Shown here: positions 29,656 through 64,000 of the stretch, piece by piece
Numbering within the stretch: the stretch's first letter is position 1
Layout of the letters: each line of letters starts with the position of its first letter
The notes under the pieces: generated by a model
What the model saw: only the letters and a program-made list of their open reading frames with translations
Database searches by the model: none
Told to the model about the DNA's origin: nothing
Program-made: the position numbers and the translations under genes
Assembly: GCA_973895155.1 (NCBI GenBank)
Contig: OZ316896.1
Span: 5,942,166-6,006,165, forward strand
DNA length: 64,000 nucleotides
From: Marsupella aquatica
Taxonomy: Eukaryota > Plantae > Marchantiophyta
Direction of reading: 5' to 3'

Positions 29656-30008
29656 GATTGGTATCCGTATTTGATGTGGTAGTAAGATGAGGACATCTCA
29701 CACCGGTCTCGCACCTGGCACCTGTGTCTATGACTATACATGATTGGACTCTGATATGGTCATGGATGTACGTGCAGAGGCAGTACATGTGAGGACAGCG
29801 GAGGAGTTGACACCCTCAAACATTTAGGAATTTTGTCTCATTCACTTGAGAATAGGTACATGACTCAGGCACCTATATTTTTTGTTTTTTTGTTTTTTTG
29901 GAACGTTACGTATTTTGGCAAGTACAGTCGGGGGTGAAATCCTTAACAGGAAGTGTATTTTTCACTTGCATAATAAAATGACAGGGTGCTAAGTGCGTGT
30001 GTATAGTG

Positions 30009-33704: not shown

Positions 33705-33881
33705 GCAACAGCTGGCGATTGGCAAGTATGAGGTTGAGGATGACTACCTGCACAGAGTCACATAACGGGAATTGCTGCCTGGAATGATGTTTAGGATAGT
33801 TGGATATGCATGAAATTGATTGATACTTTGAATTTAGTGTGTTGATTCTCCCTGTTTGGTTGTGGGTGCTGTGCAGAAGCT

Positions 33882-40800: not shown

Positions 40801-40980
40801 TGAGGGTGTTCGATCAACTGTACGTTGATCTTCTCAGAGACCCTTGATAACCTGAATGCAGTAGCTGCGTCCTCAGCCCTGGGCAAGAAGCACAAAAGAC
40901 TTACTCAAGCTATCTCAATCTTAACTGTAGAACATAATAGGATTCTCCGGAGTGGTGTACGTCGCACTGGTACTCACTGA
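37883..40980 (+). pseudogene. LINE A ORF2, reverse transcriptase and zf-RVT part
   Basis: KAPGVDG, WRPLTML, KLDFEKAFDRV, GVRQGCPLSPLLF, LFADD, KYLG, CTLC...ETTPHIFLYC. The 843-aa frame 38125-40656 is still open. Confidence 0.95.
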
Positions 40981-41337
40981 CTTGTGTTCTTTTTGGAGAT
41001 GCAACATATGAGATGCCCGATGAGATGGTTAACTAGGAATTTGTTCTATGCTTGATAGTATACTGTTGGTCAGAGGTTTCTTCATAGTAAAAGGGATTGT
41101 ACTAGGATAATCTAAGCACTGTTGGATCCCACTCTGTGCAGTATCTAGTCTGGACACTGAGCTATGTTGCTCTGTTACTCAGATGGGAATCCCTAGGCTT
41201 GTATACTGCTTTGTTGTTGCTGCGGCATAGCTTTGTTTTTCTTTCCGCCCTGGATGGCCTGCCGCCTTTTGGCCTGCTTGGTTCCCCCATCCGTGGGGTT
41301 CACACAAAATAAAAGTTAAAATTAAAAAAATTAAAAT

Positions 41338-41457
41338 TACCAGCGTTGTCTTTACTAATAGTACTATTAAGTACTATCACTAACAAGTAAAGGTCTAGCC
41401 CAAGTAATACCAATGCTATGTTTACTAATAGTACTATTTAAGTACTATCAGTAACAA
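41338..41457. repeat. 74-bp array, middle segment between the two LINEs
   Basis: About 1.6 units matching the units at 18900-18983 and from 48888 onward. Confidence 0.9.
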
Positions 41458-42518
41458 AACTCCTCAGAAAACTTTGAGCAGAGTGAGCTTGGAAAGCGCA
41501 TGGGCGGAGCTGAGAAGTGCTCTCCCTTTTGTGGTTTCGTTCTGATCCCTATGGGATCAGGAGGGACCTTGAATATCCGACTGGAATCGTGAAGAGGGTT
41601 TTGAAGGAATTCCAGTGAAGTTGCTAGTGCTGTTAACAGGTTGGAATCGGAATTGCTATAGCTGCAAACGAGTTCGAGCAAAGTCGTGGCTGAGTATTAG
41701 GGCACACGGTGTGCATTCAGTTTTGGCATCGGAGGGAACAAAGCATGTGAAGGTTGTTTTACGACGAGGTATGCGGGGGAGAGAAGACCGGGAAGCCAAA
41801 CAGGATTGGAAAAGGCAAGGCTGAATCGAGTCTGCGGCTCTGGCTGTGTATACACATAAGGACTTACTGAGTGATCCTCCGCGGTGGTTTTTGGGGGAGG
41901 GGAGGAGACGGAGTGTGACGGCACATATGGGCAGGAAGATGAGGTCGGAGGAGGGGACTTGTTTAAGTAACTTGTGGCGGGCTCTCTTGTGACCCCTTCA
42001 GCTTTTGGTCGCAAGAGATTGTAAGCAAGGATCGCTCTGAGTCAAGCATTGGAGGTTCGGGTGCCTGGGCAGCTATTGGTTGACGGACACTTTGAAGACC
42101 GTGTGACATTTGGGGGGTCGTAAGAGTTGGACCTCGTTGCATTTGAGATAGGAGGGTGAGGAGGAAGGAGTTAGCAGAGAAGTTCTGGTACCTTCGTTGC
42201 TCGACCTCGGAGTGTTGATGTAGGAGTGGCAATTTTCACTAGGATCTCTTTGGGGTACCACGGTGTGCCACGGAGATCGTGGGAAAAAGGCCATCCTTGA
42301 TGAGGAGACTATAAACTCGGAGATTGCTGGAATATGTAAGGAGTAATCAGGAAGTGAATTGTCCAAGCACTGCCGGAGTGAAGAATGGTGATTCGGGCGT
42401 TGTGTGCTGCGGGAGGCTGTGGACTGTTGACTAAATCATGGGTAAGTAAGAGAAGACTTTGACTCTTTGCTTCCTTAGTGGATGACACTACAATCGATTA
42501 ATATAAGAAGTTAGTAAG

Positions 42519-44372
42519 ATGGGGGAACAGGGGATAGACTATTATGGATCCTCAGGACGTAGATTCTCTCATGGGGGGCGTCTTGCTGGTGGACGAGTTG
42601 CGAGGATGATGCAAATGCACCCTAGTGCTTGTAACGAGGTAGCGGTGGAGAGAACACCGGGTCTAGGGTGTGAGGGCAGGGGACCTCCTGTGGAATTCTC
42701 TACGCAAGATGCGTGTTTGGGGTGGATTGATCCGGTCTTGACTACACCAACCGCGGCCCGGGACTCATTGAGTGATAATCTGATGGACATTGAGAGTCAT
42801 GCTATGGAAACCAGGCCTGAGCTCAACGCGGAGAGGGGAACTGGACTACGAAGGACCCTGGAGGAGACGGCGGGAACTGGAATGAAAAGAGATACTTTTC
42901 AGACCAGGGACAGTGGAGATGCGAGGCGAGGCGCTGCTGAGGGCATCGGTGGCGCATCGATGGGGAGAATGGGGCCATGGGAGAATGCGGAGAGGCGTGC
43001 GGTTTCTCTAGAGGAAGAAGAACCAGAAGACTGCATTAGGATCCTGTGTGAAATTGCGATTAGATCAAAAGGTGATTTGGACAAACGTTTGTATACAGAG
43101 GTGGAATGGAACCTATCGGAAGTAGCACGGAATGTGAGGCAGCTTTATAATTGTGCGTTGATCTGTTACTTTACAAAAAGAACGCCGCTCCTCACTGACT
43201 TCAGAGCATGGGTTGATGAGGTGATGACAAATCAAGATCTAATTGGCCTGTCTTACAGGTGAAATTTGTAGGGAAGAATTTCTACATGATTGTCTTTGAA
43301 AACCCGGACCATAGAGATCTAGCTCTCAATTACGCGCCCTGGTTCATGGAGAGACGATTTGTATACACTTTCCCATGGGAGCCATCATTTGATGTAAAAT
43401 GTGAGAACTTTACTAAACTTCCTGTATGGATCGAGATCCTGTTTTGTGACCTGGCTTTGGAGGGCTGCAGAAGAAAGATAGCTAGCTCTTTAGGCACTCT
43501 GCTTTACTATATCCAGGGACACAAATTCAGCTCATACCCTCACGATCGGGCCTATATACTCTGGGATACGGATAGAGAAGTGCTTGCCAGCATTAAGATT
43601 CGGATTCGAGAAGATATAGTAATTTGGCAACCTGTAACTTTTAAAAACATTCCTTATCACTGCTATCGATGTAACCAAAGAGGTCACCTCGCCAAGAACT
43701 GTAAAGAAGATGTGGAGGCTGTTGGAGCACGGAGAACTGTTGTGGACCCCCCGGAGGAGAAAGACGATGAAAGACACTCGGAGGCAGACCATAGGAGGTG
43801 CTTCATGCGGAAGCCAATGCTGAAGCAAGGGCTTGATTTTGGGAGGCTAATGTGCCTCCTCCCGAGGTTTTTCCCTTCGTGGTGGTGGTGGATTGTGCTC
43901 AGGTGGAGCAACTTTTGGAACGCCCTGAGCCCAGGGGGGTTGGGCTGCTGGCCCCTGTGGGATTGCAGAAGGAGAACAATGACAATTGGGTTGAGACCGC
44001 TCAATTGGGAAGGAGTGAAGGAGAGGTGGATTTGCCTCCGTCTTTGGGAGCTGCTGGCTGCATTACTGACTCACATGAGTGGCTGCGACCCTGTGTCCTC
44101 CGCTTGATACCATCGCCCCTGCACTGGGGCCCATTTATACCCCTAGTTATGCAACGGGCAGAATACTTGAGGTCCCCTTGGCTGACATTTTGCGTGCTGG
44201 GAACGATGAGACCTTCTCATTTCATGCGGAATCTGATGCTGAGATGTCAGAATACGAGGCTTATATCTCACACAGTAAATTCAAGGCTAGAGCCCGCAAA
44301 CAGGAGCTTCGCACACCGCCGTCCAAAAGACCAAGAAGGCCAAAGGAGAGGCCAAAAAGCAAAGATCACTAA
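42519..44372 (+). pseudogene. LINE B ORF1 (RRM/DUF4283-like + CCHC knuckle), frameshifted
   Basis: YAPWFMERRFVYTFPWEPSFD, LPVWIEI, CYRCNQRGHLAKNC. Confidence 0.85.
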
Positions 44373-44681
44373 GATTCTCACAAGGTGTTATGTCTGATGC
44401 AGGCGGAGCAGAGGACCTGGAGAGGGAAGGCGGGAGGGTAGTGCGACCTCCAAGGAAGGCGAGTGAATTCAACTATGGGCCTGGGGAGTGCTCCCCTCTG
44501 CGTTGGGACGGTTGATATTGCCTCCCCCATGCGGGTCTCTCCTGCGGGATCAATCAGTGGATACATGAGTGGACCTATTGGCCGGGAGCTGACAGGGTGG
44601 TCGCCGGGTGGACGCACCAGGATCTGAGAGACGGAGAAGGTGGTTGGCTATGCTATGCACTAACAAGGGCACAGTGGGAGG

Positions 44682-47600
44682 ATGGATGGAAGAATCAGAG
44701 TGGCGTCATGGAATGTCTGCGGATTGTGTGAGCCCAACCGCAAGCATGTTGTTAAAAATTGGGTTAGATCACTGAAAGTGGCACTAGCCCTGTTGGCTTT
44801 ACAAGAAGTTAAAGCTGACAAATTTTGGCTTGATATGGCGTTGTGGGCTATTCTCCCCTTGTATCAGCACTTTTCCTCTGAGCCTGACGAGGGTAGGGGA
44901 GGAACCGCATTACTGGTACACCCTGAGTTGAAGGTGATTTGCTCGGGAGCACTGGATTTGGGAAGGGCGGTATGGGCCGTCGTCAAGAAGGAAGATGTGA
45001 CATTTGGGATTGCTTGTATTTATGCCCCCAATTCGAATAGATTAAGGTCACTTCTATGGCATGATTTAAAGATGATGCTGCCACACAATGATTGGCTGTT
45101 GTGTGGTGACTTCAACATGATGGAACACAGAAATGACTCAACGGGACAGTCTCCTTTAATCTGAGGCAGGGAGGCTGAGTTCTGGAGATTTTTGAAGATG
45201 AGATTGAACCTGACAGATGCGTGGGACCTTAGAGGTGGAGCGACTGGCCCGAATTTCACATGGAGGAGGAAGCGTAATGGAGTGCTGATACAGTCCAGAC
45301 TTGACAGGTTTTATGTAAGTGAAATGGGTGGATGGCTTAGCGAGGTGGAACTCATTCACGATGGGGGATCGGCTCTTTCTGATCACGACCCTATCCGGCT
45401 GAATGTGAGGATTGCAGGATTGACTGAGACTGTGGAGCGAGGGAAAGTGAGACTTTTTATGGCCAACTCGTCTGTACTTTGGAAGAGAGAGGACATGCTA
45501 CTACTCAAAGAAGCTTGGAGGGTGGGAAGAGAGAACTGTGTGGACCCGCGTATTTGATTTACTAATGGAAGCCGGAGACTGAGACAAACTCTTAAGGAGA
45601 TACAAGCCAAGCCAAGGACAATGGAGGTGGAGATGGCTTTTTAGAGAGCTCAATTGAGGACACTTAAGATGGCCATTCTAGAAAATCATTCGAAGGAGGA
45701 CATTGCTGATTTCATGGATGCTGAGGACACGTTGCATGTTGCGGAACTGGAGGAAGCTCACAGAGGACGCAGGCTAGCCAGAGTTAAGTGGTTGGGAAGG
45801 AGATGAATCCACTAAATTTTTCTTTGCCACAGTGAAAGCCAAGAGAGCCAGGGAGGCTATGTCTTCTTTGAGCAGGGTGGATGGGAGTACAATCTCTGAC
45901 CCGGGAATGATTGTGAAGGAGGTTGAAGAGTTTTGTGAAACACTGTACTCACCTGAGCCTTTTTCCGAAGCGTGCGGAGGCTGAAGAGAGACGTCTGGCT
46001 TGCGATAGACTGCTCATTAACACAAGGTTTGCCCTTTCAAGAGAGGACATTTTAAAGATGGAGAAGCTCCCGACATACCAAGAGGTGAAGGATGTGTTGT
46101 GGCTCTTGCCAAGTGATAAAACACCGGGGCTTGATGGTATGACAGCTGAGGTTTATAGCATGTTGGGGTTTTATTGGTCAGGATTTAGTGGATATGATAC
46201 AAGAATTTTGGCTTACAGGTGCCCTCGATGCTGGTATTTGTGAAGGGATTGTTAAATTCATACCAAAGAAACCGGACAAGCGCTTCTTACGTGACTGGCG
46301 CCCATTGACAATGCTAAATACGATATACAAACTAATAGCCAAGATCCTTGCCTTGCGATTAAAACCTATCCTACACTTGATAATCAGTTCGCAACAAACT
46401 GGATTTATCCCTAGACGCCACATATTAGAAAACATTTCCCTTGCTTGGCTTGCCTGTGATTGGGTTCACAAAAGGAGACGAGAGGCATTGTTTCTAAAAC
46501 TAGACTTTGAGAAGGCTTTTGACCGTGTTTTGCATGAATATATATGGGAATGTATGCAGCTGCTAGGGATAAGCGGACGTTTCATCACTCTGGTAAGAGC
46601 GTTGTTGGCTCAGGCATCCTCACGTGCCTTGGTGAATGGCTTACTAACAAACATGTTTGAGCTCAAGCGTGGGGTAAGACAGGGCTGCCCTTATCACCAT
46701 TGCTGTTTGTGATTTCCATGCATCCACTCATGGATTTTCTTGATGCAGAGCTGGCAGCGGGTAGACTGTGTGGCTTGCAGATCTCGCTTGATCTCACTAT
46801 TTGTTACAGACTGTTTGCGGATGATGTGGGGATGTTTATCCCTGCATCTGAGAATGCTTTTGAAGAAGCAACAACTGCTCTTGAATGTTACAAGAAGGCT
46901 AGCGGTGCTCGACTGCATTTGAAGAAATCAGTTGTGATCCCATTGGCAATGGAGGAGGTCCCGGCTTGGCTGAATAACACGGGCTGTCATATCAGTCAAA
47001 GGGGAGAGATGCAAAAATATCTTGGTGCACCATTTGGTGTGGGCTTGAGCATGGAACAACTGCACAAATTCTGCCTTGACAAAATTTGTGCCAGGCTTGC
47101 GGTTTGGTCCAACAAGCTGCTTTCCTTTACTGCTGGTCGATCATTACTAGTTAAACAGGTACTGCTTGCTATTCCGATCTACCATGTAATGTATTGCAAG
47201 GCGTCTGCTGGTCTTGCCAAGAAGATTATTGCTCTCAGTAGGGATTTTCTATGGGGATACAACGACTCAGGAGGGAAGAAGGTTCCGTTGGTGGCTTGGG
47301 ACAGGATGACACTGCCACGGGTGGAGGGGGGACTGGGATTTCAGGATTTCCGTAGTCACTCTGATGCCCTGCTCTCGCAATGGTTCACTAAAGCACTGAA
47401 CTCGCCTGAATTGGAATGGTCCAAGATGTTGGCGGCCAATCTAGGACTGTTGGGGTGGATGAACTACAAGGTTATTAGGAGAAATGGTTACTCCTTCCAA
47501 GACCAGCTGCTTTTATGTACACCTCATACTTTTAGTGGGCTCCCCTACACTACGGGTCTCTGGCGATGCTGGGAGCTTGTGAGAGCCCATCTATCCTTTG

Positions 47601-48600
47601 AGCCTGGCCGGGGGGGGCCGCCTGCCCGGTGGAGCATCACCGACACACTCAGATGCATGGTGGGGTTTCATTCTCTTCCTAACTCGGCCATTATGGACAT
47701 TGCAAGGATCTGTGGCCGGCTGGGAATGAGATCGATTGGTGATGGTTGGTCGGCGGAGGAAGGATGTTGGAAGGACCTCCCACTTAGATGGAGAAATATG
47801 CGGGCTTCTCTGCGGAGCATCGATTGCTTGCACGGAAGTTCTTGGAAAGTAGGAGCGCTTCACACTGCCGGTCAGAGTACTTCCTGTATGCCAAACAGTG
47901 GAGGTGGACAGATAGACCTGAACCATTGAAGGATTTCAGAATTGAGAATTGCAGAGTGTATGACTTCCTGAGGCCCAAGACCTCAAATCACGAATGCCTG
48001 AATAGGATCTGGTCTCTTACCCGAGAGGAGAGAGGTTGGAATGAGAGCTGGTACAGACTGTGGAGATCGGATTTACCAACCAGAGGCAAGACCTTTATTT
48101 GGAGGATCATTGTGGGGGGCTTGTTCACTGGGGCCCGTGCGCTTCGATTAGAGGTGAGCAACGGTGACTGTAAGTTGTGCGACGGACGGCTGGAAACCAT
48201 CCCTCACCTTTTTTTCCATTGTGCACATGCTGTCTGCTGCTGGCGTATCTGTTTGACCTCATTGAGTGCACTGGATATGCCAATTGGACAAGGGCTGATG
48301 GCCCTTTTAGATGCTGCCTGTGGGAGGGAGCCTGTGGGAGTGGCGCAGCTTTTTGTCTTGCACTAGATTCTCTGGAGGCTCTGGATTGGGAGAAACACTC
48401 ACATGTTTCAGACGGGGGGGAGACGGGTGTTTGACTTGGGACTTGTCCTGTCTGAGGCAGTGGAGAACTTATTTGCTGCTGGTCGGCGTTGCCCCCAAGG
48501 GAGGAAGTGCATGCGCCTGCTACGGGCCAAATCATGTATTGATGGGCTTCGCAGGAGCTGGCTTGGCGGTGGAGGGACCAGTTTCACTTCCGCTGGTTGA
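44682..48600 (+). pseudogene. LINE B ORF2 (endonuclease + RT + zf-RVT), disrupted
   Basis: SWNVCGL, CGDFNM, SRLDRFY, SDHDP, KTPGLDG, KLDFEKAFD, GVRQGCP, LFADD, CKLC...ETIPHLFFHC; several stops and frameshifts. Confidence 0.95.
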
Positions 48601-48887: not shown

Positions 48888-49660
48888 AAGTACTATCAGT
48901 AACAAGTAAAGGTCTAGCCCAAGTAATACCAGCGCTATGTTTACTAATAGTACTATTAATAAAGTACTACTAGTAACAAGTAAAGGTCTGGCCCAAGTAA
49001 TACCAGCGCTATCTTTACTAATAGTACTATTAATTAAGTACTACCAATAACAAGTAAAGGTCTGGCCCAAGTAATACCAGCGCTATCTTTAGTAATAGTA
49101 CTATTAATTAAGTACTACCAGTAACAAGTAAAGGTCTGGCCCAAGTAATACCAGCGCTATGTTTACTAATAGTACTATTAATTAAGTACTATCAGTAACA
49201 AGTAAAGGTCTAGCTGGCCCTAGTAATACCAACGCTATCTTTACTAATAGTACTATTAATTAAGTACTAAGTAACAGGTAAAGGTCTGGCCCAAGTAATA
49301 CCAGCTGCGCTATCTTACTAATATTATTATTAAGTACTATCAGTAACAGGTAAAGGTCTGGCCCAATGAATACCAACACTATCTTCAATAACAAGTACTG
49401 CTAAGTACTATCAGTAACAAGTAACTGGAGGTCTGGCCCAAGTAATACCATTGCTCTCATCAGTAACAAGTACTATAAAGTACTATCAGTAACAAATTAA
49501 TGTCTGGCCCAAGTAGTACTAGTGCTCTTCAGTGACAAGTAGTCTAAGCGGTATTAAGCACTATCAGTACTAAGTAGGTACTATTAAGTATTATCAAAAA
49601 ATAGAGAATACCAATATTGCATAATATTAAGTACGTACTACCAGTAACAAGTAAATGACC
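48888..49660. repeat. 74-bp AGTACT-rich tandem array, right segment
   Basis: AACAAG at 48901, 48975, 49049, 49123 and 49197 (period 74). The unit contains the palindrome TAATAGTACTATTA. Confidence 0.95.
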
Positions 49661-50169: not shown

Positions 50170-52873
50170 TCAAGTTAAACCGAGTTTCTTCTTAGACTCT
50201 TTTGCGTTTGGCCTTCCTTTCCCTTTTGCACTACATATAGGTGGTGATACCACATCAGACAAATTCATCACTACTAGCCTATCGTTCATACTAGCAGGGC
50301 TATCGTCCACAGTTGCTCTCTTTGCTAATGAAAGGGAGTCATGACGAGTGACAACTTTCCTTTGGGCAAAGTCCCTAGTAATAAGATCTTGACTCTTCCT
50401 CTTTCTGCCTGAGGCTTTCTTCTCGGGAGTTCCCTCCTTTGATTGGCTATCCACCGATGCCACCACACTCCCGGGCTCCACCTTCACTACGGGATTTGAC
50501 TGCCCTAAACTTCCAATGGACTTCCCTCTCCACATGGTAGATCCAGAGAATCTAGATCTATTACATATTTAGCTGTGGAAGACAATTGAATCAACTGTGC
50601 CTTTTGCTTGATGTCTTCAAATGCAACTTGACTATCCCCCTCCTCCTACAAACACCACATAGAAAACCACTTGGTCACAACAATACATACCTTGATGCTA
50701 TACATGTGGCACACTAGCAAGCCAAGACATACAAAGTAAAACCATACCACACTAGCTAAAGTACCTTGGAATATTTTACAGTCAGTCTTCTCCCGGTCTC
50801 TCTCCTTATCTTGCCTGGCCTTCAGCTTTTCACCCCCCTCTCTGTACAAGTCCCGCAATTGTTTCTCAAAAGACTTTGTCTAACCTCCCAACCCCAACGT
50901 TACCTCCAATGCAATCAATTCTGGAGATGAATGCGCCAAGCCCCAACTTTGCAACCAATGAGGGTGAAAAATTTCATCACAAGCTACACATCGTGGAGTT
51001 TCACAGTCAGATTTTGATACTACAGGCACAAAGACACGCTGGATGGTAACAATGCCCACATGAGGTGGGAATAAAATTTTGGCAGTGAAATCCTAGGAAA
51101 CACACGGCACATGGAGACATCTTGAACAAATGTTGTCGTAATTGCAGAGCCATTGGAATGAATTGATGTTTCAAGGAATGAAACTCCCCCTGAAAATGGT
51201 CTATAAGTGATTTCTTCTCAGCCTCGCAACATTCCAAACTCTGATCATAGCCCTATTGCCTAGTTGTCAGATCCTTGAGTCTTTGCACTCCTTTCTCCTT
51301 CTCTGTACTTGCCCAACTTGCCGAAACTCCCAAGGCCTTTTATGAGTTAGCATCAGCGACGCCCTTTTGCAACATTTGAACCTGTGCCAAAATTAATCGT
51401 CATAGTTTAGAACAAATCATGGTAATATTCACAACTAACCTTGATGGCAATGTGGGAGTAAAGACTCCTAAATACGATATCATTCCGGCAAAAATCAAGA
51501 TATCTCCTCAACTATGATTTACATCCACAAAAATACCTACTACCAAAATGTAAGGAATGGTACCTCAGACTCAAGTTTGACCAGTTCTTCTGTGAGATCA
51601 TTGTCCTGTTGCTCTAATTCCTGCACCTGCTCCTGAGCATCATGGTCCTACACATTCCCAAAATCAAGTTGTTAGTATCTACTATAATTACAACAAAAAC
51701 AAATTGTAACAATTGTGAAAGAAATTCACAATGCAACACTATTATCTACCTGTTCATCCATGTCTGCTTTGCAGTTGTCAAGCTCCATTGCGACGGCCTC
51801 CTTCTTGTCCAAAACAATTTGCAGCTCTCTTTCCCTCGCATCTCATTTGGCCTGCTGAGTAGAATATGAGCTTCAACCTGCTCGATATTCTTCTGATTTT
51901 CTTCCACCAACTGTGCATGCTTCTCAACCACCCGGGTGACCTCTTTGATACTTTCCAAAACTTTCAGAGGATGAACTTTCAGGGATTCGATTTCACTATC
52001 CAAGCAATCCAACATGACACAAACAAAAGTTCCTTGCTGAAGTTCATACTTCTCAGTAGTTTCTGGAGGGACCTTGGCGGTACATACATATGAGAAAATA
52101 GTACTTCTCAGGGATGCGATAGATGTGGTTGCTGGAGCAGATGGGGGCTCCTCTGTTGTCATTGCAGGAGAAATCTTCTCGTCATCCTGCCCAGCTGTAG
52201 CTTCAACGCGTTCCAAAATACATTGACTCGGCTGCTTGTAAATAATATCTGGCCTTACAATCGGTGGACCAAATGGTTTTGGTTTCTTGTCCGTGAAGGC
52301 TTTGTGAATCTGATTCTTATGCTTGATATCAGCAAAAGAAGCCCAATTCACAGGTTTCCGGAGAACAAAATGAGCATATAGACCCTTTATTAAAGTCTTG
52401 CCCAACATCCCATTCAAAGGGCTGCTTTCGTGCCCATCCAAAACCTGCATCAAATGCACTATTTCCTCCTGCGGAATGCCTGTGCAAGTACTCAGGTGAG
52501 CGCCGTTATGGAATAACGCTCCAAAACACTTTTGTAGCATAGCCTTGGAGACAAGAGAATCTGGGATTGCACCAGGTTTCAGCCCGTGGTCAGGAAGACA
52601 ACATACTTTGGTCCAGTAATCTTTAGGTTTCCTGAAGTCTTCCTCCCGCCAAGGAATCCACTCGTCATTGGAAGGATCAGCAACGGCCTTTCCTTTTTGG
52701 AGTGGTACAAGCTTTGCAGATTTCTCGCTCTCTGTCTTCACAAAACTACTACTGCTCATAGAGCACTTCCGTGACCGGTCTGCCTTACCGCTATTGCTGC
52801 TCACCTTAACTTGAGCCTCCCTTGCCTCTTCTGCCACTACTACCTCTATCAGTTCCTGCCCTTTGGATGCCAT
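50170..52873 (-). pseudogene. Multi-exon coiled-coil + RING-finger gene of unknown family, disrupted
   Basis: CAVC...SCGHCYHPAC followed, after a frameshift, by PRCVAC (about 50980-51115). Long ORF 51746-52882 and E/K-rich coiled-coil-like exons at about 51200-51650. Confidence 0.6.
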
Positions 52874-54924
52874 CGCTCCCACCTTCCCACCTCCAATGCC
52901 CCCGACCTCAACGAGCGACCTCTTCTACCAATGTTGAAGCAAAACATTCAGCCTCAAACTTTTGAGAACATTTGAGCAAGCAATGAAAGAATGAGCCGAA
53001 AGCAAGCCTCAAGCTTCCGCAGCCTCAAACGTCCAAAGCCTTGAATGTCCGCAACCCCACAGCCTCAAACTTTCGCAGCCTCACAGCCTTGAACTTCCAC
53101 ATCCCTGCAGCTTGGAGCCTCAAAGGCCTCAAACAAATGGCTTCGACAAAATCTTCTCGTCGTCTTATTTCCTTCACACATTCAGGCCTCGGGGCATTCC
53201 CTTCACATTGCGCCTTGAGCATTTCCTTTCACATCGCCGCATCACACTATGTTCAAAGTTGGGCATTCGATTCTCCCGCACTTTTGCAATGGCGTACCTC
53301 ATACATGATCACCGTTAGATCTCATCTAACGTTGCAATGTATTTTCTAACTCAAGGTACAAGTTTGGAAACGCTGCTCACACCTCAACCGATGGATGAGT
53401 AAACATCAATGGTGCTTGCATTATTTTGATTATCCTTTAACCTTAGTTATGAGGGTTGGTAACCAGAGTTTATTACTTGGAGACCCATAAACACTTACTT
53501 ATTGATACTTAGTCCACTACTAAAAGGTGCCAAAACTTGCACCCTTTGGACCCCCTCTAACTTGCAAAAGGCCATATCTTAGTTTGATTATCTGGTTTGT
53601 AATCCCGTTTGTAATAGTCTCTCCAATGTAGAGTGCACGTTTGGTACAGGCAGTGCCCATGCTTGTGGGGATGTTGCCACTGCCCACCTATTGCCTACCA
53701 ATCCATGTCTTGTCCATAGTCTTGCCTATATTAGTTTATCCAAACTGGTAAAACATATCTAAACTGTGTGAGTGATTGTATGCCCCACTAGGGCGCTGTA
53801 TGCATCATTTTTTTCCAGAAAATTTGTGTATCTCAAATTGGATCTTTATGTTAGCCCTATCTTGGGTTTTCCTTATTATAATTCCACAATGGGTTTTCAA
53901 ATATAGATTTTATCAGTTTTATAAGGCACCTAAGGGTATAAAAAATTATCAAAAACTAATTTTTTACATGGAACAAGGGTAATGTATATGAAAGAAAAAT
54001 ACTAAGAAGGGGTAGGTAAGGAGGGTTCGAGCGCAGGGGGTACACTTAGTATACATAGAGTGAGGGTCCATGGTGATTGGGCTGACGCGGTACTCATGCT
54101 TGGACCCTCATAATTCACTGTCAATCAAGGGTCTTGGATGACTACACACCTGAGTCGCATCATATCTGATGCGCCAAGCATTCGTTGCAAATGAAGTAAA
54201 TTTCTTTGGCCTTGGGCCCAATAAGAGGTCTCATTCAAGCTCTCAGAACTCAAAGTCCGTCTAGGGGTGCAAACGGTCCCCTTGAGCTTGGCCCTCCGCA
54301 TGATCTGACCAACTCCCAATGCCAATCTAAGTTTGTTGTGCGCGCCACTAGCTCAACGCATTACCTTTGCTAGACAGTGCAATTTCTCCCCATACTTAGG
54401 CCCCATTGGATGGCCGTCCGTAGGCCTAGACCATAAAGGAGCTTGGGGTCAAAATCGCAATGCCGAAGCTAAGTGGTAGAGCAGTCAAGTTTCACGACTT
54501 ATTTCAACACAATTTAGAAAAATCAATGAACAAAATCATGATTTGATGTTACAAATGGTGCACAATATAACTTGGGCACAACTTAATCATGATTAAGGGT
54601 TGTTAAGGTTAGATTGGTGGAGAGGGGCTATATACTTGGAGGAGCGCTTCATTGTCCTCATACTTACTTGAGATCAATTTTAGGAGTTGGAGACTTGTAA
54701 GGGATAGAAGAGGAACACTCATAGAGTAGCTTGTTAGTTTGTTAGGCTATGACAGATGTACAATGTTAACATATAGTGATTTCTTCTCTTGCAAGACCAT
54801 GATTTTATTAAAGGAAAACATATTGAGCTATGTTGGACAATGTTGATTATTCGGGTTGAATTATGTTGTTCTGGTTCCATCATGTGACATCATGTCACGC
54901 ATGTACATTGTCAAATATACCATA

Positions 54925-55622
54925 CTAGCTCAATACCTGTGCATTGCACAAAAGATGTCGTTGCGCAAAAATTATCAATGTGTAAAACATCTCGTATGCA
55001 AAAAAGATGTCGTTGCGGAAAGATGTTGTACGCTAAAAAGATGCCATTGCACAAAAGGTGTCATTTGCCAAAAAAATAATGTTGCAAGAAAGCTATTGTT
55101 TACGAAAAAGATGTCGTTTGGCAAAATATGTCATTTGCAAAAAATAACTTGTTCCAAAAATGTTGTTGTGTAAATGATTTCATTGTTGAAAATATGTTGT
55201 TGCAAAAAAGATGTCAATGCAAAAGCAATATTGTTTGCCAAAAAGTTGAAATTGAGCAAAGTACATCCTTGTGTAAAAAATGTCATTGCGGAAAAGATGT
55301 TTTGTGAAAGATTTTTGTTGTAGAGAAGATGTCATTGTGCAAAGACTATATTGTGTAAAAGATGATGTTTGTGGAAAAGGTACCATCTACAATAAAGAAA
55401 CTCCTTGTACTCCTTCATCCTTTGTCAAGGCATCTTATTATCATCATTTGTATTCGTATGCCTATGTTCTTTGATATCTAATGCTAATGGTCTCTTTTCC
55501 ATGATCGAACGGTATTAAAAAACTTGCAAAAGATCTAATGGTTCTGGATGATTCCCGCCCAAACACATTTTGTAATGGGACAAAGGACAAAAAATGGTGG
55601 TATTAGATATTATAGTTGTAGA
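54925..55622 (-). mobile_element. Non-autonomous Helitron-like element with AAAAGATGTC repeats
   Basis: The minus strand ends in the TGTGCAATGCACA hairpin (54938-54950), then 9 nt, then CTAG|T (54925-54928). Tandem AAAAGATGTCG/TTG units at 54950-55380. The 5' end at 55622 is tentative. Confidence 0.55.
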
Positions 55623-56235
55623 TAGTGTATTCAAAGCTTAGAAAAAATAATTACTCCTTGTCACCTATTTATCAAAACATTTTAACCAAAGATCTCATAT
55701 TTTCTCTACAAAGATTGTTCATGGCATATCACGTAGGAATGAGAATATTTGTTTTCGCTCCCTAGAATATAAATGTTGATCAAGTCTACCGACTACTCCA
55801 CTCCACAGGATTTTATTGAGTCTTGCAATCTATCGCACACATTCTCTTGGTCCCTGGTCTATGGGTGAACGCTATCACCAATGTTCTCCCTCAGGCCTTT
55901 GTCTACACAATCAACCCACCATACATAAATTATCAAATTGGAGTAATAGTGAGATTTAGTAGCCACAAAAATACACTAGGGAAGGAAATATCAAACTATC
56001 ACCAAAAAATAAACCACACAAAGTTTTAACCCATAATAATTGGTTATATATAGTAATTATTCTTTAATTTTGATTCTTAATTCTTAATATAATCAAAAGA
56101 TAGATAGAGTCAGTAGAGATTTTACAAAATTGAACGTTGAAACTGTAAATATTTCTTTGATTATTGATAATATTATTCTAGAAGTTTTGTTAGATCTTAA
56201 ATATATATTTAAAAAAATTGTGGATCTATCAAGTA

Positions 56236-56380
56236 CTAGCCCAGTGTACGACGTGTGTTGCACAAAAGATGTCGAGTCAACAAAAGATGTCACTTAGGTG
56301 ATACATAAATGTCAAATGAGAAAAAGATGTTGTGATAAACATATATCGAGGTGATAAAAAGATGTCGAGTGATAAAACAC
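56236..56380 (-). mobile_element. Short Helitron-like 3' end fragment of the same family
   Basis: A|CTAG at 56236, degenerate GTGTGTTGCAC hairpin, AAAAGATGTC units. Confidence 0.45.
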
Positions 56381-58003
56381 CACACCATTGCAAGAGACTA
56401 TTAAACTATGACGTTCTTCTCAATGATAAGACCATGACTCATCCCATGCACATGTAGTTGACACAATCAAAATACATGGTTCACCTCTTTGCCACTTGAT
56501 GCTACATTCACACAAACACAAAAGCTTTACTATGGAGTCTCAACAACACAAGAGTTATCTCTCTCTCCCAAGTAGCTTTGTTACAATGAGCAAGCACATA
56601 TCACCCAGTGGCATACACTAGCCCTGATATATTTAAGGTCACACACAACTAACCTAACCTTAAGTAGCTAAGTCCCTAATTGTGGTTAGCCTAGTTACCA
56701 TAACCTATGAGCACAAGACTACTCTAAGCAATACCTAACAAAGTCCCCTTTGACTCTAGTCTTGGGGACTACAATTTCTGTTATCCATATGAGATATTCA
56801 GAATTCTTGACAATCACCTAAAACCATAGATGTCCCCCTAAACACCATTTAAGGTTAACTAAGGGTTAACTAGAATTAAGTCAACAGCAAGAGGGTTGCG
56901 AGGGATACGTGTTTGCATCGAGTATCGACCATCAAGGTCAGGAGCCGCATGTGGACCAAGTGAGGGCAAAATTGTGTTGTGAAACAATATTTCATGAGGG
57001 TCTCAAAGTTCCATTGAATGGCCCTGAAGAACCTTCTTTCTGTTGAATACTGGTCTTCTTCTCATTCATGTGGGTAATACATACATGGAGGTAGTTAGAT
57101 AAGTGGTGGTTGTAGTAACTACCTATGGTTACTATGGTCTAAGGTACGTAGACTTATCCTTGGGTTATAACACTCCCCCTTGGATGTAGCATTTAAAGTT
57201 AAATGTTGCAGCCAGTTAAGTCTACTATAAGGGAAAGTTTAATTGTCTTCTAGTGGGGTAATTGTAATGTGCGAGCAAACAGTAGAATTTTTGCTCGCAC
57301 GGGCAAGATGTCACCTTGTATTGGGGCCCAAAAAAGGTCTGGAATATTCCTCGCTAGCATGGAGACCCTGTTCGATCAATAAATATAGACGGCTACCCAT
57401 GGACGATTCTAGTCCCGTGAACGCAATAGATCAAAATGACATATCTTCAGGCCAGAAAAATCGCTAGTCTAATGATGCCAACACATTGAGCCACTCAAAC
57501 GAGGTACGGTCTCCACGTAAAGGCTTCCACATGTCAAAATTCCCACCCAAGGAAGAGTAATAACGAAAAAGTATTGCGCTATTCCCGCGTGAAAAGAATC
57601 AACGTGTCATTACTGCCGAGGAAAGGAGGATTAAGGCCGTTTGGACACTAATTAAGTCACTTGCAAGTGAACGGGACACTTACCGTTCGAACCAGAGGCA
57701 AATCCAAGGTGGCGAACCGTCCACTTAAACAAATCCGCTATCCCAAAAACCACCAGTCTTCCGAATCATTCTTCCGATCACTTCCACCGCGTCCAACTTG
57801 AGATCTTTCATTCGGAATTGCTATCAGTGTTCCAAGTACTCCAGATCCAGATCAGGTTAGCGCGGGTCTATGGTTCTGAGCTATTTTAAGAGAATCACTC
57901 TTTGACAAGGCATGACATTCATCGTATTTCATCGTGAATAGTGTTTCCATTTGTTGAATGTCGTTCTCCTTAATCACTGTTTGGGTTTTGTAAGTGCAGA
58001 GAA

Positions 58004-58432
58004 ATGTCTGGTGTTCCAAGCAATCCTCCTTAGGGGAAATGGCGACTTGAGATCCGTCGTTACAACCCGGCGACAGATGGCCCGCTTGAAGATGACTCTC
58101 CTCCGAAGCAGAAACCCGATGCAGCGACTATGAAGGTCTCCGCAAGCAGTAGTGTCCCAACTGAACTTGGTCAATCTGTTGGATCGTCATCATCATTGAG
58201 GAGAACACCTACTCCTCCAAAGTTAATTCCAGCAGCGAAGTCTCCACCGAAGCCAAAGGTGGATACCACACAGCACGAGGTTGTATCGAAGAGGAAGAGG
58301 CTCACAGAAGAGGAGCAGTATTGGATTGAGAGGGAGATCTATGACTACTGGACCGAGGAACGCCTCGCCTCTTCGGATTACGATTCTGAGTCAGACACTG
58401 ACTCCGATGCATGGAAGGCGTCCAGCCCCTGA
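58004..58432 (+). pseudogene. Small Pro/Ser-rich, acidic-tailed ORF (one TAG at 58031)
   Basis: ATG 58004 is in frame with ORF 58130-58432. Putative 5' UTR intron at about 57857-57999. SKRKR is NLS-like; EIYDYWTEERL motif; acidic tail. Confidence 0.45.
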
Positions 58433-58681
58433 GGGGAGAGTCAGGTTGTGGATTTTCGTAGTTACAAGCGAACCACATGTCCTCATGTACTTTCAATATG
58501 TATGAGAAGTAAAGTTTGGGTGGTCCTTTCCATTCTATGTGTTGCTCTGGAATGTCATTTTGTACATTGTACGTTTATTTGGAAGTCACAGTTGGACCCT
58601 TCCCAGACTAGCGATATCGCTAGTATCGAACTGTGTTCATCTTCGATAATCAACTCAATAGAGTATTACCACAACAACTTC

Positions 58682-58706
58682 AGGGTTTAGGGTTTAGGGT
58701 TTAGGG
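58682..58706 (+). repeat. Interstitial plant telomeric repeat (TTTAGGG) x ~3.5
   Basis: AGGGTTTAGGGTTTAGGGTTTAGGG read directly. Confidence 0.9.
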
Positions 58707-59024
58707 TCCTAAATTCCGTTGATCAGACTAGCAATCTCGCTAGCCAAAAACTGGAGTCATTTTAATGATCAAACCGTGAACTCTATAGAAACTTGTCGAT
58801 AGGTTAACACGTCTGAAAGTCAAATGTTTATGTCATGATGTAGCAGACTTCCTAAGACTAGAGATATCGCTAACCATAAACAACGAACTCAAACACCATA
58901 AAAGTAACCATTATGGACCTCGCTAACATTATGATTCACTCGGTGAAAACAGATTGATATTTGTGAAATCACAAACTCGAGTAATCCATCCCACCACCCT
59001 ATAATTAGCATCTCCAATAAACGA

Positions 59025-62000
59025 CTAGTCCCCTATCTGTAACGGAATTAAACTCCTCACTTCCCCAACAGTCAGAATTGGCTGTTTGACAAGGTCGTCC
59101 TTCTCCAGGTTGAGTGAAAACTTGTTTAAATACACCCACAACAGATGTTTACAAGACATGAATGGTTTCCCTCGTGTATGCCTCTTATAAAAGTTTTCAC
59201 AAGAACACGAAGGGAAACAACAGATTTGCACCCAATATGTGTGCGGAACTTGTGAATCAGTCTCGTGAGTGGCGATCAAGTATCTCCAACCCCATCCATT
59301 TCCGGTAGTTACCTTCTCATTTCCGACAACTCTCATGTATTCTTGTGTAGTGGAAACGATGCGCTTGAGCAACTCTGGAGTATTGCTGAAACGCTATCGT
59401 GCACCCTTACCATTTCGGGTTTTCAACCGACGGTCCACATTAGTTAGATCAATTCGTTCAGGGAATGAGTTAACATCAATTCGTAGGTTGACCCGATTGG
59501 GGGACGGGAACTCTCCAACTTGATTTCATCCACATAGGAGAGTCCACTGATCTGGAATCCTAATCCCAGCAGAAACTCTATCTCGGGATGGGAGAGGCAA
59601 GTCCCACGCTGAACCTTGAGCGACTCGGGTGGGGGGGGTAGTTGAGCTAGAGTTCTGCGTCCTCGGCTCTTGTGACACTTATTGTTAGGACAGAAGTACA
59701 ACAACTGGCGATGTGGAGACGATAATCGCAACCCGTGAATGGCGACTCCAACAATTCCCCCTTGCGCGGACTTACATCCAATCTCCTTGATGAGATTTCT
59801 ACATTCATCTCTTCCAAAAACGCTTCGGTCAATCAACCCGTTGCAAACAGGTCCAGCACCTCTACCGCTCCGCCTGAGATGCCAGGTCCCATAAGGAACA
59901 TCAACCTCTTGGATGGAAGGGATCCTTTGGGGGGCATCCGAATGGTCATCCCCGACATCACACGAAGGTTGAGTCCCCATCTTCACGGTATCATTGACAT
60001 TACGACTTGCATCATCACCATCGTCATCTGAAATATGGATAACTCCAGAAGAACAACCTCGGACAGGTGTTGCCGAAGTTGTATTATTTACTATTTCTGG
60101 GTCCGCAGAAGTCTCCGAAACATTGATGAAGCAAAATTCAGGATAGAGATTACGCCTTTTTAGTCCTGAAGGAGAAGCAGTTGTGCACACCTTATCATGT
60201 CTGTGGGAGTCATTCTCGTGGATTACAGCTGAAGCTTCCCCTTTCCTCTTTGTGGATGTTGTTCGGAGATCGCCATGTAATGGAACTGTTCTATAGAATT
60301 CATACTTAGCTGAAGACTCGAGCAAAAGATTTGCTGCCTTTTCGTAAGCATCCATGGATCCCATAGCATCGGCGTTCCTATATGCTAATTCAAAAATGGT
60401 CGGCCCCTGGCCTCTGTGAACACCTTCACTGTAGGCAGTAAAAACAGCAATTTGCCCCGCAGCACAATTCTGGTCCACCTCACATGCTTCAATCAATCCC
60501 ACTAGTTTCTTCATTTGGCAGGATCTCATGGATGCATGGACTGATTCTGCTCCAGTACAATTTGGCATCAAGGCTGACTCCATTGCGGTTTGCGTCTGCA
60601 AAAAAGTAGTCCCCAGTCAGACCTGATATGCTAGCGAGGTCGCTAGCAAAAACAATGACGTCAAATAGAAATGAAATTGGACACTTACAACGCGGATGAA
60701 GTTCCCCCACTGCCTCCACCTCACGACCCACCAAGATAACCATCCTTGGAGAGACTTCAATTTCCCAGCATAGCAGTTTCCTTCCTTCCACCAACGATGG
60801 ATTTCGTCAGAAACACGGTAGGCCTGAACATATGTTGGTGTTGTTCTCAGCCTTTCCCACAGTTTATAGTGCTCTCGATGGCAATCTTCCCGAATACCCT
60901 CCAATGTGTGACGACAAAGAGATTGAGCAAAGTGAAAGGCGTCACTGTGCTCCTTCTGTGGGTGTCGGACACCTCAAAAAAAAACATTCCGAATGGCGAT
61001 CCATCCAGCCTCGGCATTATCGGCAATAAATCCTCCAATGAGTGGGTCATGCACATCATGATTAGAGGCAACTTCAATCATATATCTCCATGCGGTTTCA
61101 AGAGATAAGGAGTCCTCCGCACGGAGCTCACAAGTGAAGATGGTACAAAGGGACCTATAATTATGGTCGTACACATGGGCGCTGAAAGTCAGCCACCCAG
61201 TGCTTATTCTCCGCATTACATCGGAACTGACCCATGCTCCTTCCAGCTCACCTCCACTCTTCATCTGCCTGAGAATATCGACACCAGAACCGGGGCCATT
61301 TGTACTCATTTTGAAGACATGAGCCCTATCGGTCTTGCTCCCCTGCCCAGGGAAAAGGTACCTTTGAATGTAAGGAAAATTATTCCGTGCTTGCATCTCA
61401 CGAAGAGAATCCAACTCACCTTTTTTTGGGTTATCCATTTTCACGCTCCAAAATATGGCCTGGAATTTCTCAATAGTGGACACAACCTTCATCGATTCCC
61501 AAATCTCTCTCTCTTCTTCTTTTGATAGTTCTGAAGAAGACTCTGGATGCAAAAGAGAAACCAGGTTTCCTATAGACTTGTTAAGAACACGCCCTGGCGT
61601 ACACACGGGATTCGCTTTATGAACACCAGAAACTATCTCCTCCGCCTGCTTTTTTGCCAATCGAGATTTCCCCTTCCAAACAACGTGGTCATGGAAACCC
61701 ATGTGAACAGCCAATCGAGACATATGTTTTGCAACATTTGACTCAAGAGACGGCTTAGGATAGACGTACAAAAGCTTAGCCGGACATTCATGGATGCAGA
61801 GAGGCCTCTCCTCACAGAATCCGCACACCAGCCCTCCTTCCTCCACAAGCTCACCAAGATGAAACGGCTCAGTAAATTGTCCCTTTCCTCGGAAAGAAGA
61901 GTCATTTTTTGAACCGGTGTGCTTCAACTTTCTACAGACCAGATTTTGACATTCAAGTACACCGGCACATCTGACTTTTGACATAGACCAGTGATTGCGA

Positions 62001-62734
62001 GGTTTGAGATTAGCTAAAGTTGTTAGAAGTCTCGTCCATGGATAGCCGTCATTATCCCTATCCATGTCCTGAAGACCATATCCTCGATGAAATTGACCTT
62101 TGACCGGAGGAAGCTCAAAAACGCAGTTTCCGTTGTATGAAGTGGGCAAAGTTTGCACTTGAATCTCCTTCCAATCGTTTCCCCTGCGGAAATTTGCCAA
62201 CTCGCTTGACCCAGTAATATTGAGGAAGGCATCATATGCACTAACACGATAAAGAACTGGCTGAGATTGAAACTCATTTTGACTCACTGCTTCAAAAATG
62301 GATTTCTCAGAAGACTTTGTCGACACAGAAGAGAGATCCCTACCCACACTCTTAGGGGAGATGTCAATAATTTCTGGTACTGCAACTGAGGGGCGAGTCG
62401 GGGATTCTGGATCGGAAACATTGATATGTGCAATGTCATCCTTACATGAGACTAGCTCTACATCTGAACCACACTTCAGGTCCCAAGCTCTTTCTGGCAA
62501 TATTCCTGAACCATTATCCGACACCTCGTGACTTCTGGATCCATCCCGAGAGTAAAGAATGAACAACTTCCAGATGAAATCATCTTTCAAAAGCCCAAAC
62601 CTCGATGAGAGAAAAGACTCCTTGACAGAGATAATAGTATTCTCCGGAACATCCAGAACAACAACATCACCCGTCTTCTTTCTCTCGATCACAACCTTCG
62701 ATCCCAATGACGACATGCTGGAAGTTTTGGACAT
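59025..62734 (-). pseudogene. Mutator-like (MULE) transposase with GCM-like Zn domain and C-terminal SWIM
   Basis: CAGVLECQNLVC...CGFC...CPAK...HMGFHDH (GCM/WRKY-like). DDE candidates SSDVM, IADNA and GAESVH, plus an FHFAQ motif. SWIM CSCENF...CKHLLWV. Intron 60596-60688; frameshifts at the A-run near 60975 and near 59480. Confidence 0.8.
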
Positions 62735-63410
62735 TACAGTCTACAACAATCCTCAAATGTGAGATACTTTTCTCTCTTCTTTCTTCAAATACATATGAGG
62801 AAACGTGCTTGTGTAGGTGTTGGACTCAACGTATTTATTTAATAAATGCCTCTCATTCCCGTTATCTGACCGTTATTTTGTCTTATATGACACTATTTAC
62901 GGAATGATAAAGCTAGCGATCTCGCTAGCTCAATGAACCAAGTAAAATTGTTCAAATCCTTACAAAACACCCTTCACGAGTTCATGTATTTAGTGATCAA
63001 TTTTTGGCTAGCGATGTCGCTAGCAAAAATAGTTTCTCATAAGAGACCATTATGACCGTTTATATCCGTTGGAATTGGTCAACGGGTACCTATATGTCAA
63101 CGGTATGGTACAGTACCGGACACCTGTCTCTTTGTCATTCGATACTTTTCTTTCAGTCATGAGTTCGGTGGTTCGTATTTCCGGAAGTACATGTATACCT
63201 GACGGTGTCTGAAAAATGATTGCGAGGAGAGTCGTACAGAATATCTGTATCTCTTTTCACGACCGGGCGCTGCATTCAGGTGAAAGCAACAGACGAGGGT
63301 ATGATTCTGTCTTTGATTGGAAGATTGATTCTCGGGTTTCTTTATGTTCGCAAAGCGTGTCACCCTCGACCTTGACCTGTTCATACCCTTATCACTTCAC
63401 GGACCCCCTG

Positions 63411-64000
63411 ATGGAGCCATTGTCTTCACCAGAGAGCTTGTCATCAATAGGATCTTTCAAGTCAGTCGAGTCAAGCCAAAGGGAGACAAGGTCTACAGTG
63501 AACAAGAAGGCACTCCAGGCGGGATTGAAAACACCGAGGAGGCCCAAGATGGTGAACCAAGTAGATGTTGTGAATCCAACGTTTCAACCTGGAGCTTCAG
63601 AACCCTATTCTGTTGTCATCAATCGCCATCTTTTCCCTTTTGGAAATGACGAATTTGGATTCCCGCTCGCTCCTCCGAGGATTCCCCTTTGCAGAATGCG
63701 AAACATGCAGATCGTTCGGTCCTTGCAAACAAACTCGATTGTGATCGAGACACTCAAGAATGAATTCCGGACGCAGGGATACATCGAAGATGCTCCTTGA
63801 TTTTACGTCCAAATGACCGGCGAAGATGGCCTTGTCCAGATGTGCGAGGATGTGATTCGGGAGTCATGGGATGACATGTGGATTCTTCAAAATGAAGAAT
63901 TCGAGAGGGAATGTGATTCTCACGAAGCTTTCAAAATTTTGAAAGATAAAATGTTCTGTGTTTTCGATGGAAATCATCGTCTGTACTCATGGATGCAGCT
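63411..64000 (+). pseudogene. ParB/Sulfiredoxin-like domain ORF (runs off the window; one TGA at 63798)
   Basis: IVRSL...IETLKNEFRTQGY, then reading through the TGA in frame, ...FCVFDGNHRL (DGNHR at 63966-63980), which is the ParB/Srx GxxR signature. Confidence 0.7.

Follow-up and report, generated by a model that had tools for sequence, protein, structure and literature searches.

A Mutator-like transposon of the liverwort Marsupella aquatica with a ParB-like gene and its own palindromic sites: a candidate self-recognition and anti-silencing system

As far as the available excerpts of the corresponding reports describe them, VANC proteins bind short motifs in the introns and spacers of their own VANDAL family and cause its hypomethylation (PMC5735166), and accessory genes of another type occur on algal transposons. 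In Ectocarpus, Sola1-1_Ec32 carries opposite its transposase a gene for a 1104-aa protein with ParB-like and N4C/N6A methyltransferase parts, for which the authors propose self-binding and modification (PMC12477816), and in red algae the ParB-2OG gene PAG3 of Plavaka elements has adjoining inverted-repeat arrays and is also found on Mutator elements of Chondrus (Bostrychia preprint, 10.1101/2025.02.11.637652). Comparable excerpts present VirB as a cytidine triphosphate (CTP)-dependent anti-silencer of the ParB family (PMC10653881, PMC7333895), and ParB-linked amino-methyltransferases as having entered eukaryotes from phages, with chlorophytes, chytrids and haptophytes as named hosts and a helix-turn-helix (HTH) of ParB type (PMC4738411). 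Here we describe, in a 64-kb stretch of the liverwort Marsupella aquatica (contig OZ316896.1; hereafter the window), a transposase, a facing ParB-like gene and six 16-bp palindromes that share one repeated unit. An earlier note on this DNA had proposed a eukaryotic transposon with a ParB-fold accessory protein and its own cis sites; a structural match of the fold and the recurrence of the trio in distant loci support this in part, while the anti-silencing role and the binding of the sites keep the standing of a proposal.

The window copy is a dead member of a high-copy Mutator-like DNA transposon, whose left edge lies at ~57256 and which extends beyond the window edge at 64000. Four public sequencing runs (X1–X4) contain the stretch, and their contigs, aligned onto positions 54000–64000, cover 57.2–64 kb with many diverged contigs and a summed depth of hundreds to tens of thousands throughout, a sum that is not a copy number; by contrast, a single low-depth contig covers 55568–56376 (depth 79 in X1, 16 in X3 and 30 in X4). 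Thousands of diverged contigs and many differing left flanks reveal dispersed copies, as in other Mutator-like elements (MULEs). No RNA run was listed as containing the stretch, a negative that carries no information on expression. The copy is dead because both genes are damaged, the transposase by in-frame stops (60974-6 and 60617-9) and a frameshift near 59526, the ParB-like open reading frame (ORF) by an in-frame stop at 63798-63800. At the left edge, nine X3 contigs carry unrelated letters upstream of 57256 (agreement 0.45) and nine diverge into one common other sequence after 57306, the depth maximum falling in the same bin; a hairpin with 11–12 bp arms (57269-57299) lies within the candidate terminal repeat thus delimited. 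The opposite end and the target-site duplication, which in MULEs measures 8–11 bp, would be situated past the window edge. Between the transposase and the ParB-like gene, no terminus-type loose end was found among those listed for the contigs of the four runs, and in X2 and X4 a diverged copy has a joint at 62716-62856 that connects the spacer with the 5' end of the transposase.

The word CTAGCGAnnTCGCTAG matches six times at ≤2 mismatches in the 64 kb, four times exactly, once with one mismatch and once with two. All six matches fall within 58608-63023, with 0.05 expected and six reached in none of 100 shuffles; the gap that separates the 3' end of the transposase from a small plus-strand ORF contains three of them, the divergent spacer two and the transposase intron one. 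The layout is two-fold symmetric (7+2+7) and contains two CG; the arms are kept and the 2-nt centre is variable, the four exact sites having four different centres. The flanks of neighbouring sites are partly similar (repeat families D7 and D12). Between the first two palindromes stand 3.7 copies of the plant telomere repeat (58682-58707), and one X4 contig carries the telomere repeat at a joint 58280-62475; since none of the 80 related loci presented below has telomere-type repeats next to its sites, this repeat is not part of the system.

Pattern search, shuffles and intron mapping thus agree with the earlier note that the six palindromes lie only in non-coding DNA. Its minus-strand transposase diverging from a plus-strand ORF also stands, the spacer measuring 676 bp for the ~680 bp announced, and its FDGNHRL motif is located at 63963-63983. 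Its module began at 57700, a start that the contig flanks shift to ~57256, and its account lacked the third small gene of the element (58004-58432). Convergent with the transposase, this gene has an acidic, Trp/Tyr-rich 3' part that is common to diverged copies in all four runs; no homologue was found via Pfam, Atlas or local protein searches. Small plus-strand genes, alike by eye, also stand upstream of the ParB gene in two related loci (L041, 1123-1548; L025, 527-1006).

The protein of the facing gene is predicted to have a ParB/Srx-type fold. Its conserved part (142 residues, stop read through) has 184 homologues at E ≤ 0.001 by full HMMER search, against none among 63 candidates when a word-index search was made with the ParB piece among longer proteins. 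Ten homologues were looked up, of which four belong to Riccia sorocarpa, two to Adiantum and four are unnamed. The fold was modelled on the homologue P0020, which is 49% identical to the window domain and has a complete first exon (55-row alignment; predicted local distance difference test, pLDDT, 91). Compared by VIA with 48,161 chains, this model had its best eight matches all in the ParB/Srx superfamily, namely KorB (Z 7.5, root-mean-square deviation 2.7, 92 aligned), SerK (6.4), PadC (6.2), Srx (6.2), ParB-N (5.6), SbnI (5.5), Atu1540 (5.4) and Srx again (4.6), the best unrelated chain reaching Z 2.6; in Foldseek, the first ten rows were Noc, KorB, ParB and Srx (best E 0.019). The fold check that had been suggested for this gene therefore returned a structural match, through the model of a close homologue. 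Within the alignment, the motif residues are kept (G 51/55, N 55/55, H 52/55, R 49/55), together with an upstream R (45/53) and a downstream N (37/43). Other searches were negative in their respective scopes: the ParB profile gave nothing meaningful against the sequences of solved structures, no relative of the domain appeared in viral contigs, prokaryotic genomes yielded no close relative of P0020, no ParA partner was seen in that part of the element which the window covers, and a Pfam scan of eight ORF pieces of the window gave nothing except one match at E 0.1.

Relatives of full length, found in liverworts and in metagenome contigs of plant-like character, continue, beyond the point where the window ends, into an N4C/N6A-methyltransferase-like domain; their order is ParB domain, long part without Pfam family, then N6_N4_Mtase-like domain (Riccia P0171, 1207 aa, E 5e-5; L005, E 0.004; L019, E 0.02; all under the curated cut-off). 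In these relatives, motif IV precedes motifs X and I and the S-adenosylmethionine (SAM)-binding motif is kept, as in the beta class. The catalytic (D/N/S)PP(Y/F/W) motif is absent from them: of the 17 proteins examined, 14 have D-[LMVF]-P-[TSFI] as motif IV, three do not match this pattern and none has DPPY, and L005 and L019 show DYPE and DIPE. The Asp and second Pro of motif IV are kept, and fern proteins have an aromatic or large residue after them (DVPF, DFPI). Weak phage matches are annotated as DNA methyltransferases in 19 of 20 listed cases, and the methyltransferase piece gave nothing meaningful against the sequences of solved structures. The model of the domain is poor (pLDDT 38), and its weak fold matches (M1.HpyAVI, METTL3, MboIIA, CcrM) serve as a hint only. 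A downstream HTH or DNA methyltransferase had been suggested as a check: the methyltransferase-like domain is there in full-length relatives, and Pfam gave no HTH. The 64-kb window holds no further piece of a ParB-methyltransferase gene; a quick tree groups its ParB-like domain with Riccia proteins that carry the methyltransferase-like domain (20 rows, support 88), and the protein of the window subfamily presumably carries the latter as well. One ParB-family protein of the fern Adiantum capillus-veneris, P0140, includes a stretch with methyltransferase motif I and ends in a domain resembling NIF/FCP1 phosphatases (E 2e-12); it may be a fused gene model.

For the transposase, Mutator-like is the best label, suggested rather than proven by its motifs. 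MULE transposases have as hallmark a C/D-x-x-H motif after the second Asp, and the DDE-type motifs recognised by eye (SDVM, ADNA, DAFH/CLFH) follow the pattern D..D-(C/D)xxH..E; the N-terminal part is rich in Cys and His, and the protein ends in a SWIM-like CxC..CxH. Of its 17 homologues, those with a name belong to two liverworts, Calypogeia fissa and Riccia sorocarpa. No Pfam family, MULE included, passes for the window pieces or for 11 homologues (12 of 12 aligned proteins unnamed); in Atlas, the homologue P0002 is nearest to MULE clusters at 0.86, with ten of ten top matches from the same family or clan, a result to be read as a lead. The transposase profile gave nothing meaningful against the sequences of solved structures, and no relatives were found in viral contigs. 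As for the label "GCM-like/DDE/SWIM" given previously, its DDE motifs, Cys/His-rich part and SWIM-like end are present, while "GCM-like" and "SWIM" are assignments by eye that Pfam does not support.

Similar arrangements were found far from the window, among 80 metagenome loci with a ParB-family match (the best 80 of 143), whose genes have introns and which were taken as plant DNA. Fourteen of these loci, about nine distinct places by shared coordinates, extend at least 4 kb upstream, and in four of the 14, or three of the nine places (L041, L054 and L073/L074), the same transposase family faces the ParB gene, always head-to-head. L041 has a different palindromic word, present 17 times within its genes and in the space between them, and L073 contains six palindromes, so that transposase, ParB gene and palindromes, whose co-occurrence had been put forward as a check, are together again in L041 and L073/L074. 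From 1754 to 3941 in L041, between transposase and ParB gene, the palindromes form an array with one copy about every 138 bp, near nucleosome-core length; the array of L044 has a period of about 74 bp. Palindromes also crowd around or inside the ParB gene where a same-family transposase is unseen (L024, L044, L069). At least two copies of a 7+2/3+7 palindrome occur in 10 of 66 loci of up to 7 kb, a count that omits the 14 longer loci, against 1 of 330 shuffles and none of 22 control window pieces, and a TCGGnnCCGA core is found in 23 of the 80 loci, across ParB subfamilies, against 0–2 of 80 in ten shuffle rounds. In 14 loci chosen for their repeated sites, and not independent of one another, exon-like DNA mapped by similarity holds none of 86 sites, with 31.8 expected. 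The word of the window itself, CTAGCGAnnTCGCTAG, is found in none of the 80 loci. The palindrome differs from one ParB subfamily to the next, and site sequence tracks ParB clades in the quick tree, for which kinship alone can account. A ParB gene with a private symmetric site outside exons is therefore the general rule, of which the window represents one subfamily.

The base composition of the element sets it apart from its surroundings. In 57255-64000, the ratio of observed to expected CpG (CpG o/e) reaches 0.77, or 0.76 once the sites are excluded; 102 windows of equal size taken upstream have a median of 0.42 and peak at 0.57. The CG/GC ratio of the element is 1.07, compared with ≤0.61 in the upstream windows. 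Two other element types of the window are lower, at 0.32 for a CACTA element and 0.44–0.54 for remnants of long interspersed nuclear elements (LINEs) (Fisher p 2e-11 and 1e-9). These figures would fit a transposing lineage that is less methylated than its neighbours, with old insertions losing their cover.

Table 1. Features of the Mutator-like element in the window (positions counted from the first letter of the 64-kb stretch)
Feature	Position	Strand	Description	Evidence
Left end, candidate ~50-bp terminal inverted repeat	57256..57306	+	with internal hairpin	contig flanks
Two subterminal half-sites TCGCTAG	57351..57467		starts 57351 and 57461	sequence scan
Third small gene	58004..58432	+	~140 codons, low-complexity, acidic Trp/Tyr-rich end; stop at 58031-58033 in the window copy	ORF
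Palindrome 1, exact	58608..58623		gap between small gene and transposase 3' end	pattern search
Palindrome 2, 1 mismatch	58728..58743		gap between small gene and transposase 3' end	pattern search
Palindrome 3, 2 mismatches	58858..58873		gap between small gene and transposase 3' end	pattern search
Mutator-like transposase pseudogene (best label)	59025..62734	-		ORFs, homologue alignment
Transposase exon 2	below 60623	-	third acidic residue region, spacer, SWIM-like end	
Transposase intron	60623-60688	-	66 nt, GT..AG	all 11 aligned database homologues stop matching at donor
Palindrome 4, exact	60631..60646		within transposase intron	pattern search
Transposase exon 1	60689-62734	-	Cys/His-rich N-terminal part and first two acidic residues	
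Divergent spacer	62735..63410	.	676 bp, CpG o/e 1.09; between transposase and ParB-like gene	
Palindrome 5, exact	62913..62928		divergent spacer	pattern search
Palindrome 6, exact	63008..63023		divergent spacer	pattern search
Accessory gene of predicted ParB/Srx fold, 5' part (exon 1)	63411..64000	+	ATG 63411; cut by window edge	

In our best reading, the element would recognise itself and counter silencing much as VANDAL does with VANC, using a system derived from ParB: the ParB-type protein of intact copies would dimerise on the palindromes of its family and hinder host CG/CHG methylation of family members, a scenario to which we give a probability of roughly 0.45. The protein must come in trans from intact copies, because the window copy cannot make it. 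As seen in relatives, it would comprise the ParB domain, a long helical part and a beta-class amino-methyltransferase-like domain with an intact SAM motif and an altered DPPY motif. A dimer would probably read the two-fold symmetric 7+2+7 site, with one site type per subfamily, and sites would be kept in introns and spacers because they entail no coding cost there. At about even odds, the protein would then load at the sites, spread over the element and either block host methylases or recruit demethylation, leaving active copies transcribable, like VANDAL under VANC. Spreading by a nucleotide-closed ParB clamp, comparable to ParB, KorB and the anti-silencer VirB, is a speculative and doubtful addition. 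The most complete version of the proposal, which we consider unlikely, would be a eukaryotic ParB/parS-type system in the transposons of seed-free land plants, in which a nucleotide-gated clamp loaded at the 16-bp palindromes of its subfamily slides over kilobases, a disarmed bacterial methyltransferase fold occupies CG sites and defeats host silencing by 5-methylcytosine (5mC), and protein and site change together by subfamily.

Several observations weigh against this proposal. Methylation has left its trace on the window copy: among 42 hand-picked, best-supported places where it departs from other copies, 17 of 22 C-to-T/G-to-A differences fall at CG or CHG (34% expected, p 3.6e-5), a concentration from which we infer that methylation affected the copy during some of its past and that its protection was partial, old or absent. 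Several long relatives are CpG-poor (0.16–0.37 in L054, L058, L061 and L067-L079), and the high CpG of the element could reflect a younger or faster-copying family. Six of the nine long places lack a transposase of the same family. On the protein side, the top VIA score stays below Z 8, Foldseek gave no match at E ≤ 0.001, and the middle part of long homologues, P0171 among them, gave no HTH with Pfam. LxxxFxxxGY and GNHRxxxW are kept, and the bacterial CTP boxes, given as Box I ELXXSIXXXGXXXP and GERRXRA in the excerpts available (PMC10653881, PMC7333895), are matched only in part; this partial match makes it plausible that the protein binds a nucleotide, with CTP as a mere candidate.

The same protein could instead be an active amino-methyltransferase, the ParB part loading at the palindromes and the C-terminal domain writing N4-methylcytosine (4mC) or N6-methyladenine (6mA), which would mark self or block 5mC. 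The N6_N4_Mtase-like matches of P0171, L005 and L019, the conserved SAM-binding motif, the preserved Asp and second Pro of motif IV with the fern variants, and the mostly methyltransferase annotations of the phage matches all point this way, and a methylating role is proposed for the Ectocarpus protein in the excerpt of its report (PMC12477816); a liverwort host enzyme also writes 4mC at CG (10.1101/2021.02.12.428880), a dinucleotide present twice in the site. With DPPY in none of the proteins, motif IV altered also in L005 and L019, Pfam scores all below the curated cut-off and a poor domain model, we nevertheless regard this activity as unlikely. Less likely again is that the palindromes serve the transposase or a host factor, in the pairing of ends or the timing of transcription, with the ParB-like gene as cargo or transposition helper and methylation untouched. 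The Cys/His-rich N-terminal part of the transposase could bind DNA, half-sites lie near the left end and two sites occupy the shared promoter spacer; against this, full sites are internal rather than terminal, and those of relatives cluster at or in the ParB gene even without a same-family transposase (L024, L044, L069). Red-algal inverted-repeat arrays likewise adjoin a ParB gene that accompanies a transposase of an unrelated class, according to the excerpt available (10.1101/2025.02.11.637652), and the CpG excess would be left unexplained.

It is improbable that the palindromes lack a function and were left behind by a tiny mobile unit or by local tandem duplication, their absence from exons resulting from insertions lethal to the element. 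The periodic arrays of L041 and L044 and the partly alike flanks of the window sites would be compatible with such an origin, which does not sit well with arms that are kept around a varying 2-nt centre, with the symmetry and TCGGnnCCGA core found across subfamilies, nor with a lone site inside a 66-nt intron. That transposase and ParB gene are separate repeats, neighbours by chance, is very improbable: a single palindrome family spans both genes, the transposase intron included, the spacer and the 5' end of the transposase are joined in a diverged copy, no terminus-type loose ends were listed between the genes, and the head-to-head pair was found again in three distant places. Chance neighbourhood would agree with the fact that no aligned contig covers both genes, with a right end of the element that lies beyond the window, and with the long ParB places that lack the same transposase.

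The element seems to have inserted ~80 bp from the polypurine tract of a long terminal repeat (LTR) retrotransposon, inside it, so that the continuation of the retrotransposon should mark the right end of the element; the remnant, with its LTR and polypurine tract, occupies ~56625-57182 on the minus strand and is very deep in all runs. Degenerate tandem arrays of 17–18 bp units occur at 54924-55380, 2545-2645 and 56264-56377, and position 54924 is a sharp repeat end with 42–108 different flanks per run, pointing to another high-copy element. Further upstream, the strongly CpG-depleted CACTA element (28110-35246, plus strand) encodes Transposase_21, DUF4218 and DUF4216, with a BRCT-like ORF upstream in its region (28110-28628), and two or three LINE remnants (38029-47926 and 19074-19802, plus strand) encode RVT_1, zf-RVT and DUF4283. 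Three long ORFs have no Pfam family, at 11672-12682 (plus strand; Cys-rich and transposase-like by eye), 3893-4867 (minus) and 51749-52924 (minus), and satellite-like arrays of 10-, 19- and 29-bp units lie at 13923-14865, 18797-18981 and 48888-49526, a 74-bp unit being present at two places.

If the proposed system holds true, a second and unrelated anti-silencing solution, combining a ParB fold and a methyltransferase fold, would exist in liverworts, ferns and plant-like metagenome contigs, implying repeated invention, and it could bear on how DNA transposons fill the genomes of seed-free plants. The algal proposals came without a defined site, and one 16-bp word per subfamily makes binding, nucleotide dependence and methylation effects directly testable here; matched pairs of protein and site could become tools for local epigenetic change. 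The window copy contributes a further subfamily site, CTAGCGAnnTCGCTAG, together with a left end whose position is mapped and CpG evidence; as it is dead and cut, other copies would serve better at the bench.

Compared with the systems introduced above, each taken from excerpts of its report, VANDAL with VANC shares a Mutator-like element, accessory genes and short motifs that are specific to the family, change with the protein and lie in introns, spacers and ends; it differs by 8–9-nt non-palindromic words in one orientation, by a protein for which the available text mentions no ParB or methyltransferase domain, and by a function that is experimental there and inferred here. With bacterial ParB/parS, KorB, Noc and VirB, the common features are the ParB/Srx N-terminal fold and a 7+2+7 palindromic site like parS, itself a 16-bp palindrome; the plant proteins depart from them by GNHR in place of GERR, a partial Box I, no HTH detected by Pfam, no ParA in the window part of the element, a large fold insertion, a C-terminal methyltransferase-like domain and introns. 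Phage ParB-methyltransferase fusions and the eukaryotic N6A-MTase clades show a similar ParB-linked methyltransferase, land-plant transposons not being among the hosts named in the excerpt. Sola1-1_Ec32 is alike in uniting ParB-like and N4C/N6A methyltransferase domains in one ~1100-aa protein on the strand opposite the transposase, and is distinct in its brown-algal host, its Sola transposase, an excerpt that mentions no palindromic sites and a methyltransferase taken as active, motif IV being altered in the plant relatives. PAG3 offers a ParB-like accessory gene with nearby inverted repeats, proposed self-binding and a cassette that moves between transposon classes, Mutator included; there, a 2OG-oxygenase is the fusion partner of ParB, the methylase has a gene of its own (PAG2) and the repeats stand in tandem arrays, whereas here ParB is joined to a methyltransferase-like part and the sites lie scattered over introns and spacers. 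A ParB-like gene on a DNA transposon with nearby inverted repeats is thus common to the algal elements and to this one, the likeness to the algal proteins being one of description, and the novelty implied by the earlier note was overstated, since such genes and neighbouring repeats were already published for algal transposons. No land-plant report of a ParB-carrying transposon was found in the open literature searched, Repbase and subscription papers lying outside that scope. New relative to the algal proposals are the land-plant host, the Mutator-like carrier, the dispersed subfamily-specific sites and the altered catalytic motif.

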